From Desulfovibrio sp. (lineage in GTDB: Bacteria > Desulfobacterota > Desulfovibrionia > Desulfovibrionales > Desulfovibrionaceae), in the NCBI RefSeq assembly GCF_034006445.1, contig NZ_JAVESS010000010.1, positions 28,933-92,932 on the forward strand: DNA of 64,000 nt, in the 5' to 3' direction. Positions 12,573 to 24,214 of this stretch are shown piece after piece. The notes under the pieces were generated by a model that did not search any database, was not told where the DNA came from, and saw nothing but the letters and a program-made list of their open reading frames with translations. The position numbers and the translations under genes were made by a program. The stretch's first letter is position 1. Every line of letters starts with the position of its first letter.

Positions 12573-12965
12573 TAGAGGCGGCGTTCAGGCAGCTATGGAT
12601 CGGTAGGAATTTTGGGGGCTGTTCTTAGTTTGAGTTTGGGCCGCCTGCGCGGCGGGCGGCAGAGGCGGTCGCAGACCGGGATTTGATCGCTGGGCTATTG
12701 TGCTGGCCGGGATTTTGTAGAGGCGGCGTTCAGGAAGGGTATAGGCCGGTAGTATTTTTTTGGGCTGCTCATTACTCTGGTTTGGGCCGCCTGCGCGGCG
12801 GGCGGCAGAGGGGGGCTGGCAGACCGGGTTTCGAACGCAGGGCTATTGTGCTGGCCGGGATTTTATATAGGTGGCGTTCAGTGCAGGGTATAGACCGAAC
12901 GTAATTTTTGGGGCTGTTCTTGGTTTGAGTTTGGGCCGCCTGCGCGGCGGGCGGCAGAGGGGGCC
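12573..12965. repeat. Three tandem degenerate ~147-bp repeats
   Basis: Units start at 12573, 12718, 12868 (TAG..GGCGTTCAG); each has invariant TTTGGGCCGCCTGCGCGGCGGGCGGCAGAGG. Confidence 0.85.
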
Positions 12966-13109
12966 TGTTAGGGGCTGTGCCCCTCCGAGGCCCCCTCTGC
13001 ACTCCCCCCGGACGACCCCCAAGGTTCTCAATTACCCTAACGTGGCGAGGGCTGCGCGGCTTTTGCTGCGGGAGCTTCCTCGCTCCGCTCGGCGATCTCC
13101 CTCCGCGCC

Positions 13110-13596
13110 GCGCAATGCCATCCACAAGTTTGGCTGTGGTTCAGCCAGGCAATCGCTTGCCATCAACGCGTTTGCTGTGGTTCAGCCAGGCATAGCTTGC
13201 CATCAACGCGTTTGCTGCGGTTCAGTTCGGGCAGGCACTTGCACTCGGCGCAATGCCATCCACAAGTTTGGCTGCGGTTCAGTAGGGGCGTCGCTTGCCA
13301 TCCACGCGTTTGGCTGCGGTTCAGTTCGTGTAGTCGCTAGTCCTCCACGAGATTGCTGCGGTTCAATTCGGGTAGTCGCGGAGTCATTCAGTGCAACGCC
13401 ATTGGTGGGGTTTGCTGCTGTTCAGAACAACGGTGAGCAAGCCATCCGGCGCAATGCCATCCACAAGTTTGGCTGCGGTTCAGCCAGGCAATAGCTTGCT
13501 ATTCACAAGTTTGGCTGCAGTTCAGCCAGGCAATCGCTTGCCATCCACGAGATTGCTGCGGTTCTGTTTGGACAGTCATTTGCACTCGGCGCAATG
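13110..13596. repeat. Tandem array of ~10 degenerate units (27-28-bp core, mostly 41-43-bp period)
   Basis: Core GCCATCCACAAGTTTGGCTGCGGTTCAG followed by short linkers that themselves recur (CCAGGCAATCGCTT). Confidence 0.85.
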
Positions 13597-13748: not shown

Positions 13749-14576
13749 CTATACGCTCCAGAACATGAGGGCGGCCTTTGCCTGCACACTTTCCCGCACC
13801 CGACCGTCACTGCTCAGTTCCGCCAGTTTACGGGTCAGGCCCTCCTTTTGCTGCGGGCTAAGCGGCCCCATGCTTTCAAAGAAGCGCAGATACATGAGTT
13901 CCGCCTCTTCAAGGCTGCAGTCGCTTTCCCACGCGCGGTCCATATATTCCACTTCGGGGTAGTATCCCATCAGCCAGAGCAGATTGAAGGCGCAATAAAA
14001 ACTGCGGCTTACGCGCTCCTTGTGCGCGTCCCAGTCCACCAGCGACTTGAGTTGGTCGCGCACCGAGTGGCAGGTATCAACCTGGCTGATGATGCAGCAG
14101 GAGCCGCAAGAGGCCGCGATCATTTTTTCCAGGGCAGCCTTGTCGTTGACTGCCGGAGTTCTGGAGGCAAGAACCAGGTGAAACCGGTTGCGCCATCCCA
14201 GGGCGTCCAGATCGGCAATGCTCCAGTCCAGCACCTGAAAATGCGCCTTGTCGCACCCGTCCCGCGCGGCGTTTTCCCTGGCGAGTTCTATCATGGCGGG
14301 GGCAATGTCAAAGCCCTCCACGCGACCCACCAGAGGAGCCATCTCAAGCGCGTGGCTGCCAGGGCCGCAGCCGATATCAAGTACAGACGCCGACGGGTCA
14401 AGCCCCGCCTTGCGGGCTATGTGCTCCACAAGCAGACGCCTGTGTTCGCGTGAGGCATCACCCCGGATGTGGTCGTTGAACGAAGGCGCGCGTTTGTTCC
14501 AAAAATCCGCCATGCCGGTTCGCTCTGGCTGGTAGTCCACCCAAAGCGCTTCAAAAGTACGCATGGTTAGTGGCAT
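13749..14576 (-). CDS. Class I SAM-dependent methyltransferase 1
   Basis: Motif I VLDIGCGPG, DIAPAMI; N-terminal FWNKRAPSF; overlaps DUF364 stop. Confidence 0.88.
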   Translation of the reverse strand: MPLTMRTFEALWVDYQPERTGMADFWNKRAPSFNDHIRGDASREHRRLLVEHIARKAGLDPSASVLDIGCGPGSHALEMAPLVGRVEGFDIAPAMIELARENAARDGCDKAHFQVLDWSIADLDALGWRNRFHLVLASRTPAVNDKAALEKMIAASCGSCCIISQVDTCHSVRDQLKSLVDWDAHKERVSRSFYCAFNLLWLMGYYPEVEYMDRAWESDCSLEEAELMYLRFFESMGPLSPQQKEGLTRKLAELSSDGRVRESVQAKAALMFWSV

Positions 14577-15340
14577 GATTCAGCCACCATATTTACCTTT
14601 TGCCCACCGTGCCCAAAAATGGCTTCACAGTTGTCGTTCTTGAGGGATGCGCTCATCTTTTCAGCGTCAACCACAACCAGACCCGAAAGGGAGCGCACCC
14701 CGTGCGAGAAAAGCAGAGGGTTCATGGGCGTGCTGGGGCCCACCATGTATACCTTGGCGTTGGCGCTCAGTTCCAGCAGCCTGGTGATGGTCTTATTGAT
14801 AAAGGTGGTGCCGGTAATAAAAACAAGATCTTGCTGTGGCAAAATATATTCCGCCGCAGTGTCCGGCAAATCCCCGGGTTGGGGCTGACGCTCAAGTATT
14901 GAAAGTTCACAGTGCTGGCGCAGCCGCCCAAGACCGGGAAAATGCCCGACAACGGTTACTTTTTTGCCCTTTGCCTCTGAAAGAAAAAAGTCAAAGGCAT
15001 CCCCGTGGCGATTGTCCAGCGCCGTACGCAGGGGGCTTGGCTCCACAAGAGCCAGGGTATTGTTGGCGGCGTTCAGGGCGGCAAGGCCGATGGAGGCGGC
15101 GTTGAAATCCCAGGACTTTATTTTTTCCGCTATCCGGCGCAGAGGCTGGCCCACCATGTCATGACAGGACTGGGCAGAGTCGGACGCACCCGGAGCAGGG
15201 GGGAAATACTGCGCCATCCCTATGCCGCCGCTGTCTGTCTCCACCATGAGCCAGTGTTTGCCGCAGGTGAAGGATTTGACCAGAGCAGTGTCGGGCACAG
15301 AGTCAAGCAGTGCGTCATACAAAAACCAGCGGTTACTCAT
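14567..15340 (-). CDS. DUF364/DUF4213 Rossmann-like (putative heavy-metal chelation) protein
   Basis: ASIGLAALNA, KKVTVVGHFP, LPQQDLVFITGTTFINKT, MVGPSTP; start MSNRW overlaps FmdE stop. Confidence 0.82.
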   Translation of the reverse strand: MSNRWFLYDALLDSVPDTALVKSFTCGKHWLMVETDSGGIGMAQYFPPAPGASDSAQSCHDMVGQPLRRIAEKIKSWDFNAASIGLAALNAANNTLALVEPSPLRTALDNRHGDAFDFFLSEAKGKKVTVVGHFPGLGRLRQHCELSILERQPQPGDLPDTAAEYILPQQDLVFITGTTFINKTITRLLELSANAKVYMVGPSTPMNPLLFSHGVRSLSGLVVVDAEKMSASLKNDNCEAIFGHGGQKVNMVAESCH

Positions 15341-15908
15341 GGCAGACCTCAAGTGGGCGATAGTAAGCGCCATCGGCGCAGGCGCGGCAGTATGTCTTGC
15401 CGTCCCGCAAGACTTCCTTGCAGTCCAGCACATCCTCACCACAGGCGGCGCAGGTGCATACGCGAACTGGCGGGCCGGGCAGTTCGCCTTCCGGCATGTC
15501 TATGTGTACTTCCTGCCATGCAAAGATGTCATCATCAGTGTACTTTTCCCAAAAGGCTATCTGCTCCTGTTTGGGAACATCGTGGGGAGGACGGTCGGAT
15601 GTGGTCACGTGTACCCTGACAGCCCGTCCGCTCTTAAGGTCAAGAAAAGACATGGCGGTTTTGCCATATCCATAGACCTTGACCCGCCTGCGGCCCAGAG
15701 TCACGCCTGTGACCACATGGGTGGCATCGGCCACGCATCTGTCAGTTTCCAGAAAAATAACAAGATCCCGCAGGTTGTCTTCGGGTTTGAGATCAAGCAG
15801 GCGCAAGGCCATAAGGGACATGCGGATGCCCAAGACCTGCCCGCTACAAATGTGACCGTGGTACTTTTCAGCCTTTTCAAGGAATGGTGTGATGTTTGTC
15901 ATGGCCAT
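15333..15908 (-). CDS. FmdE-family protein 1 with C-terminal C4 zinc finger
   Basis: YHGHICSGQVLG, ETDRCVADA, CAACGE...YCRAC. Confidence 0.88.
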   Translation of the reverse strand: MAMTNITPFLEKAEKYHGHICSGQVLGIRMSLMALRLLDLKPEDNLRDLVIFLETDRCVADATHVVTGVTLGRRRVKVYGYGKTAMSFLDLKSGRAVRVHVTTSDRPPHDVPKQEQIAFWEKYTDDDIFAWQEVHIDMPEGELPGPPVRVCTCAACGEDVLDCKEVLRDGKTYCRACADGAYYRPLEVCHE

Positions 15909-16461: not shown

Positions 16462-17349
16462 TTACCGCAAACTGAAGATGAAGGGCAGTTCCACCAGGGT
16501 ATTCACTGGCTGACCCTTGAGTTTGCCGGGGACAAAACGCATGTTTTTTGCCGCCTTGAGCGCCGCTTCCTCGAAATACCCGTCCGGCGTCGCGTTGACA
16601 ACTTCACAGTTGCGGGGCTGGCCGGAGGCGTCCACCACAAGGCGCACCTTGACGGAACCCTGAATGTTCATGCGTTGGGCCCTGGCGGGGTATTCCGGTT
16701 CAACGCGCCGGGTAATGCTGGGGCGTTGATCCAGTACATCGCAGGCGTAGGCGTCAATCCCGCCCACGGTGCGCGGCTGCGGCCCTGCTGGTGCGGTTGC
16801 CCCTGCCTGAAGTGCCGGGCCAGCCGTGGTGCCTGTGGCGGCCGAGGCAACCGTAGTGGTCGGGACGGCAGGAGAAGGCTGTGCTGCCGGAAGGGAAGGC
16901 TGCTCAGGCGTGGCTGCTTCCTTGGGTATGGCTGTTTCGCTCTTTTTGGGGCTGATCTTTTTTGCTTCCGGCTTCGGTGGTACAGGTTTGGCGGGGCGGG
17001 CATCCGGCTTTGGCTGCGCCAGTTCCGGCGGAGGCGGCGGAGACGGCGCGGGCTTTTCCGCCACAGCGGGCGCGGCAAGCAAGGTGGGATCTGCAGACAC
17101 GGCAGGCGGCGATCCAGCGGCCGGAGCAAACTCGGCAAGCGTCACACGGTAGACCCTTACCGCTGTGGGTGGCGCTTCCCTGCCCAGCAGCAGCAAACCG
17201 CCCAGCAGCAGCGCGTGCATACCCAGGGAAAGGGCCAGGGCCACGCCACGTATGCCAGACAGTGTCGTCATGGGCGTCTTTCCTGGTATTTCTGCGTTGA
17301 ACTTCGTCCTGTATTCCGGACGAGTGCCATCAGAGTACACTCCCTGCAT
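16462..17349 (-). CDS. tonB: TonB energy transducer 2 (start uncertain: 17349 or 17271)
   Basis: TM SLGMHALL, Pro-rich linker, YPARAQRMNIQGSVKVRLVVDASG...FEEAALKAA. Confidence 0.87.
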   Translation of the reverse strand: MQGVYSDGTRPEYRTKFNAEIPGKTPMTTLSGIRGVALALSLGMHALLLGGLLLLGREAPPTAVRVYRVTLAEFAPAAGSPPAVSADPTLLAAPAVAEKPAPSPPPPPELAQPKPDARPAKPVPPKPEAKKISPKKSETAIPKEAATPEQPSLPAAQPSPAVPTTTVASAATGTTAGPALQAGATAPAGPQPRTVGGIDAYACDVLDQRPSITRRVEPEYPARAQRMNIQGSVKVRLVVDASGQPRNCEVVNATPDGYFEEAALKAAKNMRFVPGKLKGQPVNTLVELPFIFSLR

Positions 17350-17365
17350 AAAAAGCTCGTTTTCC

Positions 17366-18115
17366 TTAAAAAAGCACATGGGGCTGGCCGTCAATGGTCT
17401 GCAAACGGACTGCCATGCCGTATGCGCGGCCAAGGTCATGCTCGCTCAGTCCCGATGTCGGCCCCTGATATGCCGGGCGTCCCTGGTGCAGAAGCATGGC
17501 GTGCTGCGTGTAGCGCAGCGCATAGCTCAGGTGGTGCAGCACGATGCACACACAAATGCGGCGAGTTGTACTGATATCTGTAATTGTTTCAAGCAGTTCA
17601 ACCTGATTGCGTATGTCCAGGTGGTTGACGGGCTCATCCAGCAGAAGGACGGGAGCTTCCTGCGCAAGAGCGCGGGCTATAAGCACTTTTTGCAGCTCGC
17701 CGCCGCTGAGGCTGGTGACGCACTGTTTTTCCAGATGGGTGAGATGCAGTTCTTCAAGGGCGGCCTGTGTTTTCAGGCGATCTTCCTTGCCGGGCAGCCA
17801 GCCCATGTGCGCTCTGCGCCCCAAAAGCACGGCATCAAAAACGCTGCTCGGCACGGGCTGGGCAGTCTGCGACAGGTAGGCCACGGCTTGCGCGCGCTGG
17901 CGGCGGTTCAGGCCGAAAAGGCCGCTTCCTCCGTACAGCACGCGCCCGGATGTGGGGCGTTCAAGCCCGGCCACAATTCTGGCAAGGGTGCTTTTGCCCG
18001 CGCCGTTGGGGCCGATGAGGGCCATGCAGCGTCCCGGTTCAAGGCAAAAGGATATGCCCTCAAGGATGGTTTTGCCGGAGCGTGCCACAAGAGAGATGTT
18101 TTCGGCCTCAAGCAT
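17366..18115 (-). CDS. ABC transporter ATP-binding protein
   Basis: GPNGAGKS, LSGGELQ, LLLDEP; start overlaps permease stop. Confidence 0.92.
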   Translation of the reverse strand: MLEAENISLVARSGKTILEGISFCLEPGRCMALIGPNGAGKSTLARIVAGLERPTSGRVLYGGSGLFGLNRRQRAQAVAYLSQTAQPVPSSVFDAVLLGRRAHMGWLPGKEDRLKTQAALEELHLTHLEKQCVTSLSGGELQKVLIARALAQEAPVLLLDEPVNHLDIRNQVELLETITDISTTRRICVCIVLHHLSYALRYTQHAMLLHQGRPAYQGPTSGLSEHDLGRAYGMAVRLQTIDGQPHVLF

Positions 18116-19340
18116 GCGCCCTGGCCCCCCTGAAAAGAATGTACAGAAAAACCGGAACCCCGGTGAAGGCGCAGACAATGCCTACAGGCAACAGGGCGGG
18201 GTAGATGATGGACTGGGCCACGAGGTCGGCTGCCAGCAAAAAACACGCGCCAAACAGGGCGGAACCGCCTAGCAGAAAAAAATGTCCGGCGTGGGGAAAG
18301 ATGAGCCGCACCATGTGGGGCGCCACCAGGCCCACAAAGCCGATGACCCCGTAAAAGGCGGTGGCAAAGGCCGCCATAAGCGAGGCCATGAGCAGGGTAG
18401 TGCAGCGCAGCCGCAGCACTGACACGCCCAGAGCCGCCGCCTGGGCGTCGCCCCAGCGCAGGGTGTCATAGTCCAGGTTGCGGCGCAGGGAAAAGACGAG
18501 GCCCGTCAGCAGCACGAGGCCCACCAGCGCGACCTCGCGCCAGCTTCCCCTGCCCAGATCGCCGAAGCTCCAGAAAACGGTGGCGGCCACCTGGCTGTCA
18601 GAGGCGAAAAACTGCAAGGACATGGTGGCGGCCCCAAAGAGGGTGGACAGGGCCACCCCTGCGAGAATAAGCCCCTGCGGCCCCATGCCCCGCACCATGC
18701 TGAAGGCCAGTATGATCAGGGCCGCGCTGAGCGAACCGGCCAGCGCGCCCATGGCCACGGTGCTCAATCCCGCCAGTCCGCCAGCCATGGGCAGAATAAC
18801 CATGGAAAAGCTGGCTCCAAAGGCGGCCCCCTGTGAAAGCCCCAGGGTAAAGGACGAGGCCAGCGGGTTGTTGAGCACATTTTGCAGCATGGTTCCGGTG
18901 AGAGCCAGGGACGCGCCGACAGCCAGGGCGGCGCAGACCTTGGGCAAGCGCAGATGGAGGACAAAATAACGTAAGGATTCGTCGCCGGAAGCGCTGAACA
19001 GGGCGGCCCAGATGTCGGACCACGAGCGTGAAAGCGCACCCATCTTTAGGCCCGCCAGCCCCAGCAGCACGGTCACAACCAGCAGTGCCGCCATTGAGAA
19101 GACGCGCGCGCGGGGGCCATCCCACGGTTGGGAGCAGCAGTCCCCTTTTGGGGCCACAAAAAGCGGGGAGTGCTGGCTGCCGCAATAAGCCTGGCTGCCG
19201 CAGTGGGCGTGCGGGCTGTCGCAGTGGGCCTGGCTGCCGCAGTGGGCATGCGGGCTGTCGCAGTGGGCCTGGCTGCCGCAGTGGGCTTGGGGGTGCTGGG
19301 CCGTGTCACTCTGGCCGCCAGTGGGCACCTTACCGGGCAT
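18108..19340 (-). CDS. FecCD-family ABC permease with His/Cys-repeat N-terminal extension
   Basis: LRLPKV, NNPLAS, GVIGFVGLVAPH, LPVG; N-terminus HCGSQAHCDSPHA repeats; ATG overlaps the upstream stop (ATGCCCGGTAA). Confidence 0.9.
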   Translation of the reverse strand: MPGKVPTGGQSDTAQHPQAHCGSQAHCDSPHAHCGSQAHCDSPHAHCGSQAYCGSQHSPLFVAPKGDCCSQPWDGPRARVFSMAALLVVTVLLGLAGLKMGALSRSWSDIWAALFSASGDESLRYFVLHLRLPKVCAALAVGASLALTGTMLQNVLNNPLASSFTLGLSQGAAFGASFSMVILPMAGGLAGLSTVAMGALAGSLSAALIILAFSMVRGMGPQGLILAGVALSTLFGAATMSLQFFASDSQVAATVFWSFGDLGRGSWREVALVGLVLLTGLVFSLRRNLDYDTLRWGDAQAAALGVSVLRLRCTTLLMASLMAAFATAFYGVIGFVGLVAPHMVRLIFPHAGHFFLLGGSALFGACFLLAADLVAQSIIYPALLPVGIVCAFTGVPVFLYILFRGARAHA

Positions 19341-20409
19341 AGTCCAGCCCCTGTGCGGTCAGTTGCAGTCTGCCCGGCCTGCCGGTGACGCGCACCATGT
19401 CTTCATACAGGGGGAAGCCGTTGAAAAGAATGAATATTTCATCGGCCAGCGCCTCGGGATCAAGGCTGGAATATCTTTGGGGGTAGGCTGCCTTGGCCAT
19501 GAAAAAGGCATTGATATACAGCACTTCAGGATTGTTGAAATAGGCCGTGTGGGGCAGCAGCAGCCAGGTGTTGCCGCTTGTGAGGGCTGTGAGGCGTTCA
19601 TAATACCGCCGTTCGCTGTCCAGCGCCTGGCGTATGAGCGGCAGCCCGTTGCCGTCTATGAAGATCAGGGGCGGGTCGGCCGCCAGCAGAAATTCCCTGT
19701 TGATGAAAAAATGTCCTGATTGGCCCATACCATCGACCATGTTTTTTACGCCCGAAAGCGTGAAGGGCAGAAAGTCGGCGGCCGTGCTTTTGATGTCCTG
19801 GTTGCCCTTGTAGGAAAGCCCGCCCATGTAGGCCTGCACCATCGCTTGTTCAGCCGGGGCGGGCAGGCGTTTGGCCAGATCGCCAATGCCCGTGACCAGT
19901 TCCTGAGCGCGTTCTTCCCTGCCCAGAATGTTTCCGGCAAGGAGGATGGACTCAAAAAAAATCTCGCTGTCAAAGGCGGGCAGCCCCTGACTCAGGGCAA
20001 TGACCGGCACGCGCAGCTTGCGCTGGATCTGGTCAGGTTCTGACGGATCAGTGGAGATGATAAAGACCACATCCGGGTTGAGGGCCACAATACGTTCATA
20101 GTTGGGCACGCGCACGGCCCCGGCCTTGCCGACCACGGGCAGGTCTTTGAAGCGCTCGCGGTTGCAGAGCACATAGGGCTTGGCAATGACGGCCTTGTCG
20201 ATGTCCTCCACGCCCACGATCCTGTCCTGCGCGCCAAGGTAGGTCACAAAGGCCATGCTGCTGCCAAGGGCGATAACGCGCCGCACGTTTTGCGGCTCCG
20301 GCACTTCCACAAGGCGGCCCATGGCGTCGGTGACGGGGCGCGCCCCGGCAGGAGCCGCGCCCGACAGCAGCGCCAGAGCCAGCAGGAGCAGACTCAGCGC
20401 TTTTGCCAT
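19330..20409 (-). CDS. Periplasmic substrate-binding protein (class III)
   Basis: Signal peptide (APAGA-RP), VTDAMGRLVEVP, PNYERIVALNPDVVF, KAAYPQRY. Confidence 0.88.
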   Translation of the reverse strand: MAKALSLLLLALALLSGAAPAGARPVTDAMGRLVEVPEPQNVRRVIALGSSMAFVTYLGAQDRIVGVEDIDKAVIAKPYVLCNRERFKDLPVVGKAGAVRVPNYERIVALNPDVVFIISTDPSEPDQIQRKLRVPVIALSQGLPAFDSEIFFESILLAGNILGREERAQELVTGIGDLAKRLPAPAEQAMVQAYMGGLSYKGNQDIKSTAADFLPFTLSGVKNMVDGMGQSGHFFINREFLLAADPPLIFIDGNGLPLIRQALDSERRYYERLTALTSGNTWLLLPHTAYFNNPEVLYINAFFMAKAAYPQRYSSLDPEALADEIFILFNGFPLYEDMVRVTGRPGRLQLTAQGLDYAR

Positions 20410-21161
20410 ATGATCATCTCGATGACATAGTCCGTGCGTTCCACATACTGGCCTTGTTCATCCTTGAATGTCTCCACGTGCGCTTCCACAAAGCGCGGGT
20501 CGGGTTCCGCGCCGTATTCACGCAGGGTGGTGAGGCAGACGTCCACAAGATCCTCACGGCTTTTTGCCACCACCCACTGGCCCGTGACCGGGATGGCTGT
20601 GTAGGGCACGCCATTGCGGTCAAGCCAGGATCGCATATCCTGGGCATTGTTGAAAATTTTTGGGGCAATGCCGTAGTGCTCGTGCAGGCCCTGCATGACG
20701 TTGGAGAGCATGCGGTCTGAAAAGCCCATAAAAACCACCTTGTCGGCGGCATACTGCATGAGCTTTTCTCTACTTGCGTCGCTTTCAATGGCTGGCGTCA
20801 TTGAGGCAAAAACAACGTCAAAGCGTTCATGGGCAGAAAAGTCATCCCAGCCGGAGCATACGGTGGTAATGTTGGTGATGTGCATGGCCGCGGCGTCTTC
20901 GCGCAGCAGGCGCAGCATCTCGTCGGACACGTCCACCGCCGTGACGTGCTCGCCCATGCGCGCCAGACGCAGGGTGTACATGCCGCTGCCACAGCCCACA
21001 TCCAGAATGCGTTTATTGGTGAAATCCACTCCGTTTTCCATGGCGTGACGAAGCATCTTGGCCTCGTAGGTATGATCGCCTTCCTCAAAGCGCGGGAAGG
21101 TGCGCGAGCGGGCATTCCAGAATTCACGCTGCTTTTGCTGTTTTTCGTCTACAGTTCCCAT
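20394..21161 (-). CDS. Class I SAM-dependent methyltransferase 2
   Basis: ILDVGCGSG, AVDVSDEML; N-terminal FWNARSRTF; overlaps both neighbours. Confidence 0.88.
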   Translation of the reverse strand: MGTVDEKQQKQREFWNARSRTFPRFEEGDHTYEAKMLRHAMENGVDFTNKRILDVGCGSGMYTLRLARMGEHVTAVDVSDEMLRLLREDAAAMHITNITTVCSGWDDFSAHERFDVVFASMTPAIESDASREKLMQYAADKVVFMGFSDRMLSNVMQGLHEHYGIAPKIFNNAQDMRSWLDRNGVPYTAIPVTGQWVVAKSREDLVDVCLTTLREYGAEPDPRFVEAHVETFKDEQGQYVERTDYVIEMIIWQKR

Positions 21162-23359
21162 TTGATGCTGACCCCCGCGTTGATTCCCAGTGCCGGGTAT
21201 CCCCAGGCTTCTTCATACTGGGTGTTGGTTATGTTGTCCGCATAGGCTTCAAGAGTAAGGTGTTCGTCAACCCTGTAGCTGAGGCTTGCGCCAAGGGTGG
21301 CGTAGTCGTGCAGCGTGCCCTTACGCAACTGGGCCGTATTGACGTAGTAGTTGCGTTGCCCCACATAGGTCAGCACGGCGTCAAGGGTGAACTGTTCGTT
21401 GATTTTCCAGGTGGTTCCAAGGGTTCCCTTCCAGTCGGGGATGTATTCCAGCCTGTCCAGCACGCCGTTGGGGTCGGCAGGGTCATTGGTTTTTTTGCTG
21501 TCCTGCCTGGTGATGGCGGCGTTGACCGTCACAGTGTCCAGCAAATCATAGCTGCCGCTCAGGGTGGCCCCGTATATTTCGGCGTCGATATTGTAGGCGG
21601 CCCAGGCCTGGTAGCTCGGCGACCGGTTAACGTAGACAGGTTTGTGAACGATGTAGTCCTGAACGGTGTAGTAAAAGCCGGAAAGCTTGAGAAAACCCTT
21701 GCCCCCGAAGCTGTATTTATAGGCAGCGTCAATGCCGCGCGCGGTTTCGGGCTTTATGTCCTTGCCCACCAGATAGGGCACGTTGACCGTGGCGTCCCGC
21801 GATGATGCCTGCGAGTTCCAGTACAGTTCCGGGATGGTGGGGGTTCTGTAATTCTGGTACAGCGCAAGGGAGGCGGACTGGTGTTCGGTAAAGTCATACG
21901 TGAGCATGATCTTTGGGGAAAGCTGCGAGTTTAAAAGATGTTTGTCCTGACCTTCAGGGCTGTAGCTGAAACTGTCGTAGCGCAGGCCCATATCAAGACG
22001 CAGGCTGTCGGTGATGGAGAACTTGTCGGCCAGAAAGGCACCCGTGACCGTGGCGGGCCTGCCTGCTTCTGCGGAGTCCATCTTGCCCGTCCACTTGTTG
22101 GCCCCGGCCTTGTTGTAGTTTTCGTCCACATATTCAACGGTGATGGGGCCGGGGGTCAGCCTTTTGTATTCAACACCCGTCATGAGCTCGTGGCCATGAA
22201 CGGTGACGCCCGTTTTGAACTTGAAGCCGTAGGTATTGTCCACAATGACGTTACGGTCCAGTACGAGGTCGCCGTTTCTTGTTTGGGAGGGATTAAAGTC
22301 TCTGGGATTCGTTGTTTTTAACTGCATGCGGGCGTCAACGTCCGCATAGTTTTTTTCACGGCGGCTTTCGCTGTTCTTGAAACCGGAGACTTCAAAGTAG
22401 GCGGTTTCAAGAAACTCCTGCCGATAGGTGAAATCCATAAGGTGGCGGTACTTGGTCCAGTGCGCGCCGTCGCCGATAACCGTCATGGAAGGCGTGGGCG
22501 AACCACCGGCAAAGCTTTCGCCGCTGGCTGTTGGGTAGTTGGAGTCAATGGCGGAACTGAAGCCGGGCACATCCGGATTGGCGTCGCTGGCGGGGTTGCC
22601 GTCGTTTCTGTTGCTGCGGATAAGCCCGCGCCGGGTCTGGCTGTAGTTGTACCCCAGGGTGAGTTCTGCCCGCCAGGGCAGGTCGATGTAGAGCTTGGGG
22701 TTGAAGTGGAAGGAGTCGTAGTCGTTGTTGCGCAAAAAGGGGTCGGCGTGCTGATGGCTCAGGCCCACGCTGAGGCCGATGGCGTTGAACTTCTGGGCAT
22801 AGCTGCCGCGCACGTTGTGAAAATCGTAAAAGTCCTTCCAGCCGCCCATGGTGGCGTAAGCGCTGAAATGGGGCTGCTCCGTGGGCCGACGGGTATAGGC
22901 GTTGATGACCCCGCCAAGGGCGCTGTTGCCGTATTCAACCGAACTGCCGCCCTTGATGACCTCAATCTTCTCGATATTGTCCAGCGGGATGGTGCCAAAG
23001 TCGATATAGTTGCCGCCGGACATGCCCGTGGAACTGATATCACGCCCATCAAGGTTGAGCATGATTCTTTTGGATTCCATGCCCCGTATGGAAATGATGT
23101 CGCTGCTGTCTCCCATGGCGGCCTTGCGCTTGAAGGATATTTCAGGGTCGCGCACCAGGTAGTCGGCCACGTTGTTGCTGCGGTTTTTTTCCACAACAAT
23201 GGCGGTTGTTCTGTCCAGATTGTCTTCTTCCATACGTCCGGTAACCTTTATGGGATCCAGAACAAAGACATCCTGCATGAGGTTGTCGGAACCGGCCGCG
23301 ATCCCCGCTCGGGGAAAGGCCATAACTGCCAGCAAGCACAGACTGAGAACAAGTTTCAT
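21149..23359 (-). CDS. TonB-dependent outer-membrane receptor 2
   Basis: Start moved to MKLVLSL (GGAG 7 nt upstream); plug ISIRG, IEKIEVIKGGSSVEYGNSALGGVIN; C-terminal DNITN...GVSIKWEL. Confidence 0.9.
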   Translation of the reverse strand: MKLVLSLCLLAVMAFPRAGIAAGSDNLMQDVFVLDPIKVTGRMEEDNLDRTTAIVVEKNRSNNVADYLVRDPEISFKRKAAMGDSSDIISIRGMESKRIMLNLDGRDISSTGMSGGNYIDFGTIPLDNIEKIEVIKGGSSVEYGNSALGGVINAYTRRPTEQPHFSAYATMGGWKDFYDFHNVRGSYAQKFNAIGLSVGLSHQHADPFLRNNDYDSFHFNPKLYIDLPWRAELTLGYNYSQTRRGLIRSNRNDGNPASDANPDVPGFSSAIDSNYPTASGESFAGGSPTPSMTVIGDGAHWTKYRHLMDFTYRQEFLETAYFEVSGFKNSESRREKNYADVDARMQLKTTNPRDFNPSQTRNGDLVLDRNVIVDNTYGFKFKTGVTVHGHELMTGVEYKRLTPGPITVEYVDENYNKAGANKWTGKMDSAEAGRPATVTGAFLADKFSITDSLRLDMGLRYDSFSYSPEGQDKHLLNSQLSPKIMLTYDFTEHQSASLALYQNYRTPTIPELYWNSQASSRDATVNVPYLVGKDIKPETARGIDAAYKYSFGGKGFLKLSGFYYTVQDYIVHKPVYVNRSPSYQAWAAYNIDAEIYGATLSGSYDLLDTVTVNAAITRQDSKKTNDPADPNGVLDRLEYIPDWKGTLGTTWKINEQFTLDAVLTYVGQRNYYVNTAQLRKGTLHDYATLGASLSYRVDEHLTLEAYADNITNTQYEEAWGYPALGINAGVSIKWEL

Positions 23360-23483
23360 GCGTACTCCGGAGCGGCGCCTGTGCTGAAGGTTGGTGTCAG
23401 TCCTGCGCATGTGATGTTTTTTAAAAAAGTGCTACTGTCTGATGGAAAAAAGGCTGCTCGCGGCAGCCTTTTGCCTTTTTTTG

Positions 23484-24187: not shown

Positions 24188-24214
24188 GTAACACAATTTG
24201 AATTATCGTAACAC
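24188..24214 (-). promoter_or_regulatory. NikR-type operator GTGTTAC-N13-GTGTTAC
   Basis: Minus strand gtgttacgataattcaaattgtgttac; half-site and spacing match the deltaproteobacterial NikR site as I recall it; overlaps the -10 box. Confidence 0.65.

Follow-up and report, generated by a model that had tools for sequence, protein, structure and literature searches.

What does a tandem repeat rich in histidine and cysteine do at the start of an importer's membrane subunit, and is it made into protein at all? The question is raised by a permease gene on the minus strand of a 64,000-nucleotide stretch of Desulfovibrio sp. DNA (assembly GCF_034006445.1, contig NZ_JAVESS010000010.1, positions 28,933 to 92,932), which is called the window here and numbered from its first letter. 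The repeat is almost certainly translated and would belong to an N-terminal arm of the permease, disordered and cytoplasmic, in an ATP-binding cassette (ABC) importer that is TonB-dependent and of type II (BtuCD-like). We give even chances to the proposal that this arm, made by slippage, is a multivalent, flexible metal-capture and relay site at the cytoplasmic exit of the importer, with nickel as the most likely metal and FmdE as a likely acceptor. The gene and its relevant parts, including the first transmembrane helix (TM1), are the following.

18108-19340, minus strand: FecCD/BtuC-type permease gene of a type II ABC importer, 410 amino acids including an 82-residue N-terminal tail (Pfam)
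19170-19286, minus strand: three 39-base-pair (bp), 13-residue tandem units with six x-(H/Y)-C-(G/D)-S-(Q/P) candidate metal-ligand motifs (Tandem Repeats Finder and codon listing)
19113-19142, minus strand: conserved membrane-proximal motif DCCSQPWDGP (consensus HCCSxPWDxP), adjoining TM1 and found in all orthologs
19044-19115, minus strand: TM1, residues 76-99, with Arg77 and Arg79 ahead (AlphaFold2 helix, HmuU alignment)

The permease core is an ordinary FecCD family member; it matches Pfam FecCD (PF01032) at 5.6e-76 and 256 bits (cut-off 26.5), and the match runs over residues 90-404 and takes in positions 2-311 of the 311 in the profile. Tandem Repeats Finder reports the repeat at 19166-19293 with a period of 39, 3.3 copies, 89% matches, a score of 193 and a nested 18-bp period, each 39-bp unit being composed of an 18-bp and a 21-bp subunit. 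Read in frame, the units are AHCGSQAHCDSPH (19286-19248), AHCGSQAHCDSPH (19247-19209) and AHCGSQAYCGSQH (19208-19170). One synonymous base (CAT/CAC) is all that distinguishes units 1 and 2, which suggests a very recent duplication. The first 82 residues of the permease contain nine His and eight Cys; their last part, KGDCCSQPWDGPRARVFS, adjoins the first membrane helix. These results confirm the initial annotation, which had described a 39-bp in-frame tandem repeat ahead of that helix and a repeat peptide of nine His and six Cys followed by GDCC (residues 66-69). Like extensions of the HspA/Hpn/SlyD type, the segment is terminal, disordered and dense in His and Cys, with a Cys-Cys pair included in the conserved HCC. 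A second in-frame micro-repeat of the permease, (GGLA)n, is located in the loop after 'ILPMA' (18762-18785, minus strand) and varies among close relatives, reading AGGLAGLS in the window, AGGLAGGLAGLS in P0142 and AGGRAGGLAGGLAGLS in P0137.

Whether the repeat belongs to the protein depends on where translation begins, and two sites in the window bear on this point.

19330-19352, minus strand: translation start region, with AGGGG at 19352-19348, a 7-nucleotide spacer, ATG at 19340-19338 and the stop codon TAA of the substrate-binding protein (SBP) gene at 19332-19330
19092-19094, minus strand: internal in-frame ATG (Met83), inside TM1 and not a start codon; its position is not conserved and it has no Shine-Dalgarno (SD)-like sequence

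The permease ATG at 19340 overlaps the end of the SBP gene by 11 nucleotides (ATGCCCGGTAA), as had been noted before. Ortholog DNA was compared in a set of 13 sequences, the check for alternative starts and the listing of start arrangements covering 12 of them and L035 being the thirteenth. ATG-CCC-(GGT/CAT)-AA, overlapping the SBP stop, is kept in 13/13 Desulfovibrio sequences, and the AGGGG-type start arrangement of the window is the same in all 12 listed loci. The gene callers of public assemblies annotate the long form of the permease. No in-frame ATG, GTG or TTG occurs between codon 1 and HCCSxPWD in 10 of the 12 orthologs checked. Furthermore, changes in the conserved codons of HCCSxPWD are almost confined to third positions (TGC/TGT, TCC/TCT/TCG, GAC/GAT and CCC/CCT/CCA, with one non-synonymous exception), a pattern that points to selection on the amino-acid sequence. 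The start-codon census, the absence of alternative starts and the third-position pattern thus argue strongly for translation that starts at ATG 19340 and runs through the repeat. They bear out the earlier expectation of a translated tail, and the ortholog start codons favor ATG 19340 over a start downstream of the repeat.

The opposite case, in which the repeat is an untranslated intercistronic spacer in this strain and the permease starts at GTG codon 62 or ATG codon 83, draws on the presence of both in-frame codons in the window. It is nevertheless scarcely credible. GTG codon 62 is a strain-specific Ala to Val change (GCG in relatives) and has no SD-like sequence. Seven orthologs (L031, L035, L022, L024, L026, L027 and L023) have Ala, Leu or Thr at the position of Met83; the nine-unit relative (L035/P0124), one of these, has Leu. 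A start within TM1 at this codon would remove Arg77 and Arg79, and the codon-constrained HCCSxPWD, which no alternative start precedes in most orthologs, lies upstream of it. The sequence ahead of the internal ATG, GCGCGCGTCTTCTCA, has no purine-rich stretch; the initial annotation was right that this codon has no ribosome-binding site, while its position, given as near 19098, is corrected by four bases to 19094-19092. An explanation of the repeat region by RNA structure was also considered and rejected, the region folding less well than shuffled sequences (z = +1.85).

An AlphaFold2 model, built with a 31-sequence alignment, places the translated tail outside the folded part of the permease. 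The predicted local distance difference test score is below 50 for residues 1-68, about 81 for residues 71-80 and 95 in TM1 (helix 76-99), and the chain is ordered from about residue 71. The repeat array is thus predicted to be a flexible arm, and the PWDxP part is predicted to cap the first helix. The nearest solved structure is that of the haem permease HmuU (4g1u), with an alignment that begins at residue 83; the other solved homologs align from residue 83 or later, except 5b57, which aligns from residue 28. The N-terminus of BtuC/HmuU-type permeases is cytoplasmic, and Arg77 and Arg79 before TM1 fit the positive-inside rule. From the homology to HmuU/BtuC, together with the AlphaFold2 helix layout and the two arginines, we infer that the tail is cytoplasmic, which supports its original placement on that side ahead of TM1.

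How common is such a tail? A whole-protein search yielded a tight clade of orthologs, 74-90% identical, whose members come without exception from genomes or metagenomes of Desulfovibrio. The 121 nearest FecCD homologs have a median length of 13 residues before TM1, and at least four His and Cys are found there in 13/121, all members of the Desulfovibrio tail clade; the 108 non-clade homologs inspected have no His/Cys-rich N-terminal arm. The view that FecCD permeases normally do without this tail is therefore borne out. A search with the tail only against 5.8 billion proteins retrieved the three closest orthologs alone and the tail in no other family. At the DNA level, the degenerate pattern HC(G/D)SQA(H/Y)C, which spans two adjacent units, occurs in one of 401 species genomes of the order, with three hits, all in the permease gene, and the reversed-pattern control gave no hit. 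The genome encodes two further FecCD permeases, one in the window and one on another contig, and neither has such a tail. A literature search on His-rich tails of FecCD or ABC permeases found no report for a type II ABC importer permease, and for importers of the BtuCD/FecCD type a membrane subunit with a His/Cys tail has apparently not been described before.

Two further loci of the genome, both outside the window, are recorded here. A paralogous receptor-methyltransferase-SBP-permease-ATPase operon (G000:C25:41350-47148; L018) encodes a permease that is 74% identical and has a short ordinary N-terminus (MQPLDQASPPASCRYIYVAR). A six-frame genome scan for segments dense in His and Cys was too noisy for a clean rank in this 58% GC genome; it surfaced a 773-residue FeoB-like GTPase/transporter (G000:C20:143675-145996) in which a stretch rich in His (GAGAHGQHEHHGQHAQHGHHGH) lies at the N-terminus, immediately ahead of the G1 motif. 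This frame is a second metal importer of the genome with a ligand-rich cytoplasmic N-terminal tail.

The orthologs also indicate how the array arose. Deeper members of the clade (for example Desulfovibrio sp. MES5, D. falkowii and several metagenome-assembled genomes) have a tail of 33-35 residues with one H-x-H-C-G-like unit and HCCSxPWD. The ancestral tail was, judging from these sequences, an arm of about 34 residues with one H-x-H-C-G unit and a membrane-proximal H-C-C-S-x-P-W-D that would cap TM1. In the gene-body tree, expansions are found only in one young subclade, with 2-9 copies; there the first unit would have been multiplied through recombination, either slipped-strand or unequal, involving units of 18, 21 and 39 bp. 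The window has six units, L035/P0124 nine (430 amino acids, with a gene body 98.4% identical to that of the window at the nucleotide level), L029 four and L030, which is 97.8% identical to L029, two. L031 and L032 have 2-3 units if the Cys to Ser units are counted that the tree labels (2 and 1) omit. One protein cluster at ≥90% identity holds forms of 378, 384, 410 and 430 residues, and the observed length variants (378, 384, 397, 410 and 430 residues) are all in frame. The arrays of the window and L035 share a terminal A-Y-C unit, which suggests descent from one array whose length changed later. The alignment of orthologs, which had been proposed as a check on tail presence and repeat number, shows them to be His/Cys-rich at the same place with a number that varies. 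An on/off phase-variable contingency locus was rejected as an explanation, since all units (18, 21 and 39 bp) are divisible by three and slippage keeps the frame.

Selection on the tail was assessed in the units and in their flanks. The residue before Cys is His in 25/33 units, encoded by CAC in 15 and CAT in 10, and Ser at +2 is retained in 26/33. The ratio of non-synonymous to synonymous substitution rates (dN/dS) is ~0.57 in the non-repeat tail flanks, versus 0.10-0.14 for the gene body (membrane domain). Purifying selection on the tail appears weak but real, as is typical of a disordered segment with embedded motifs.

These observations bring forward near-neutral slippage as a serious rival for the expansion itself. 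According to this explanation, only the short tail or the HCCSxPWD cap is functional, and the six-unit array is a low-complexity slippage product that is tolerated and has no capacity or regulatory role. We regard it as possible but clearly the less probable course. It is favored by unit lengths that are all multiples of three and never break the frame, by the very recent duplication behind units 1 and 2, by copy numbers that differ between sequences whose gene bodies are 97.8-98.4% identical, by the dN/dS of the tail and by the variation of the (GGLA)n micro-repeat in the same gene. Against it stands the retention of His before Cys in most units despite CAC/CAT turnover; the expansion multiplies exactly the ligand-bearing unit, within a metal-related operon, and the diverged units of the nine-unit relative retain C-(G/D)-S. 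The initial annotation had allowed for a neutral slippage expansion. That caveat holds in so far as the expansion is recent and variable (1-9 units), with weakly constrained flanks, and fails for the basic tail, which is conserved; the large copy number in the window strain may be nearly neutral all the same.

The metal context of the tail comes from its operon. The gene order is FmdE with zinc finger, TonB-dependent receptor, S-adenosylmethionine (SAM)-dependent methyltransferase, binding protein, permease, ATPase and TonB; a second unit downstream comprises FmdE, DUF4213/DUF364 and methyltransferase genes, and the order is the same in relatives. The neighbors of the permease gene and the candidate operator of the operon are listed below.

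24188-24214, minus strand: GTGTTAC-N13-GTGTTAC, a NikR-like operator lying over a promoter-like -10 element (promoter scan; consensus from PMC545781)
23484-24128, minus strand: FmdE and zinc-finger protein carrying the motif HGHLC, encoded by the first operon gene (Pfam FmdE 1.6e-29, zf-dskA_traR)
21149-23410, minus strand: TonB-dependent outer-membrane receptor (Pfam Plug and TonB_dep_Rec_b-barrel)
20394-21161, minus strand: SAM-dependent methyltransferase, between the receptor and SBP genes (Pfam)
19330-20409, minus strand: periplasmic SBP (Peripla_BP_2), translationally coupled to the permease (Pfam; nearest Protein Data Bank entry 2etv, 3.5e-66)
17366-18115 (or to 18178), minus strand: ABC ATPase, likely start ATG 18115 overlapping the permease stop (Pfam ABC_tran; called with 249 amino acids in relatives)
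16462-17439, minus strand: TonB-family protein (Pfam TonB_C)
15333-15908, minus strand: second FmdE and zinc-finger protein, with conserved YHGHIC...C ligands (Pfam; alignment to 2gvi)
14567-15442, minus strand: DUF4213/DUF364 protein, 'putative heavy-metal chelation' (Pfam; PMC2954201)

The partners of a type II importer are present, namely a class III (Peripla_BP_2) SBP and an ABC ATPase with overlapping stop and start codons. The ATPase, of ~249-270 residues, consists of the ABC_tran domain alone and has no C-terminal regulatory domain. Both FmdE proteins carry HGH(I/L)C, and the downstream one (15333-15908) aligns H-x-H-x-C and a second Cys with 2gvi; the H-x-H-x-C pattern resembles the H-A-H-C of the tail unit. 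In the N-terminal domain of FmdE, the site formed by His15, His17, Cys19 and Cys55 is solvent-exposed and held mixed Zn/Ni in the crystal, and most FmdE genes neighbor metal transporters (PMC2954224). We also note that the intergenic region 12573-13564, between a nucleotidase and a methyltransferase gene, is full of tandem repeats, with a 149-bp unit in 2.7 copies and three blocks of 40-42-bp units in 2.6-3.0 copies.

The clue to the metal comes from the NikR-like site. It is unique in the window, where none is expected by chance, and one of two such sites with at most one mismatch in the 3.5-Mb genome. The 27-mer is identical in four close loci (L021, L031 and L035 among them) and degenerate in L027. 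The genome encodes a NikR (PF08753 match of 116 bits, G000:C26:15569-15793), and the delta-proteobacterial NikR consensus is the inverted repeat GTGTTAC-N13/14-GTAACAC (PMC545781). Nickel regulation of the operon is plausible on the strength of this one imperfect candidate operator. The other genomic site (G000:C20:142636-142662) reads GTAACAG-N13-GTGTTAC, in reversed orientation; it is intergenic, after a trpA-like gene, and lies ~1 kb upstream of the His-rich FeoB-like gene. The paralogous operon L018 has no NikR-like site at ≤1 mismatch. An Rfam scan of 10-30 kb of the window found no riboswitch and no cobalamin or other RNA-based substrate clue, and no ModE-type operator was found in the window. 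The best NCBIfam matches of the TonB receptor, far below the cut-off, are 'PUIUD', 'CU' and 'PCPU' motif-type receptors, names that indicate selenocysteine-containing motifs.

How, then, would the arm work? In the proposed mechanism, the eight Cys would be present as reduced thiolates in the cytoplasm of an anaerobe, and the His/Cys ligands would bind a metal of soft or borderline character on its way out of the transporter. Ni(II) would be the most likely metal because the operon promoter carries the NikR-like operator. The arm would serve as a local capture and relay (buffer) site, from which the metal would probably be passed to the co-encoded FmdE with its His2Cys2 site, and the copy number would set the metal capacity. 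The roles suggested in the initial annotation for a metal-binding tag, as buffer, sensor or hand-off site to FmdE, would agree with the NikR-like operator, the conserved His2Cys2 ligands of FmdE and the Cys-Cys motif. Metal binding, the identity of the metal and the relay role of the tail are all things that we infer from the ligand pattern and the gene context. A bolder version, which we think unlikely, makes the tail a built-in metallochaperone that strips Ni/Co from an imported metal-chelate where this emerges on the cytoplasmic side of the BtuCD-like transporter and hands it to FmdE by ligand exchange, with the 39-bp array as an evolvable dial of capacity from strain to strain. If this were true, metal handling would have in the array a 'quantitative contingency locus', and the FmdE/DUF364/methyltransferase transporter islands would gain their first mechanistic handle.

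Several findings weigh against the proposal of a nickel capture and relay arm. The first unit has decayed, with the loss of most His and Cys, in L023, P0013 and P0014. The exact number of units is not strongly constrained, given that 1-9 copies occur within one cluster at ≥90% identity, and the dN/dS of ~0.57 speaks of weak selection on the tail. The half-sites of the NikR-like operator are perfect at N13 and stand in direct orientation, versus the inverted form that has been published, and the site is absent from the three deeper loci L022, L024 and L026. As to the substrate, no NCBIfam model reaches its curated cut-off for naming the operon proteins. The structure nearest to the SBP, 2etv, is that of an uncharacterised 'iron' SBP of Thermotoga maritima, and the protein has weak N-terminal similarity to the molybdate/tungstate binder MolA/HI_1472. 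In view of these relatives, the substrate could conceivably be an oxyanion or thiometallate.

Two other roles for the ligands were weighed. A metal-loaded tail could act as a trans-inhibition sensor that docks where permease and ATPase meet and closes the importer once the cytoplasm contains enough metal, a logic comparable to that of MetNI and ModBC or of the regulatory N-terminal metal-binding domains of P1B-ATPases. The tether to TM1 at the cytoplasmic face, the conserved ordered cap PWDxP and an ATPase that lacks a regulatory C-terminal domain would suit such a sensor, and excess Ni is toxic while the operon appears to be metal-repressed. A sensor would, however, be expected to have a defined site rather than a copy number of 1 to 9; there is no sign of a docking surface, and the known trans-inhibition domains are located on the ATPase subunit. 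We consider this role quite improbable. The second possibility is that the Cys/His array, rather than handling the transported metal, ligates an iron-sulfur (Fe-S) cluster or serves as a thiol redox or sulfide sensor. A strict anaerobe and eight Cys in 82 residues, including a Cys-Cys pair, speak for it, but the spacings C-x5-C and C-x6-C are not known from common Fe-S motifs, disorder is predicted for the segment, and within the units His shows the same degree of conservation as Cys. This reading is very unlikely.

Binding of the imported metal by the arm, if borne out, would show how a cell keeps toxic Ni/Co from being set free where it leaves a high-affinity importer. The exit would then also have a physical tie to FmdE, DUF364 and methyltransferase genes, which are poorly understood and accompany such transporters in anaerobes and methanogens. 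The interest of the locus lies mainly in its natural gradation from 1 to 9 units among almost identical transporters. Near-identical proteins with 1, 2, 4, 6 and 9 units offer ready variants for the effects of ligand copy number on uptake, tolerance or maturation of hydrogenase in gut and environmental Desulfovibrio.

Cytoplasmic His/Cys-rich appendages are already known on metal exporters, P-type pumps and chaperones. With BtuC, HmuU (4g1u), MolB/HI1471 and BhuU, the permease shares the FecCD fold over the whole profile, and as in BtuC/HmuU-type systems the operon provides a class III SBP and an ATPase, together with a TonB-dependent receptor and TonB. In contrast to the permease described here, none of the 108 inspected homologs outside the clade has a His/Cys-rich N-terminal arm. 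MetNI and ModBC sense the transported substrate on the cytoplasmic side through a folded C-terminal domain of the ATPase subunit, a domain that is missing from the ATPase of the present operon. P1B-type ATPases, with their N-terminal metal-binding domains and His-rich stretches, and the His-rich loops of cation diffusion facilitator (CDF) and ZIP transporters are cytosolic appendages that feed or regulate the transport site. They belong to other transporter superfamilies, and many of them are folded CxxC ferredoxin-like domains, unlike the disordered tandem repeat found here.

Two further parallels relate to nickel. The Ni/Co efflux protein RcnA has a cytoplasmic His-rich loop that is expanded in cable bacteria, and its role in transport versus chelation is debated (PMC11247825). 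It resembles the present case as a cytoplasmic ligand-rich segment of a nickel-related transporter with a lineage-specific expansion; RcnA is, however, an exporter with an internal loop of His only, whereas the segment here is the N-terminal tail of an ABC importer. In HspA and Hpn, His/Cys-rich extensions and Cys-Cys motifs bind Ni, Cys-Cys being a reported metal anchor (PMC3856676). Helicobacter pylori HspA, a GroES protein with a C-terminal extension, and Hpn are like the permease in having a disordered His/Cys-rich extension on an otherwise ordinary protein, and they are tied to NikR-controlled nickel physiology (PMC3856676), as the NikR-like site may indicate for the window operon. They differ in that HspA and Hpn are soluble storage and chaperone proteins with another extension sequence, whereas the Desulfovibrio arm belongs to a membrane importer and is built from 13-residue tandem units of variable number.

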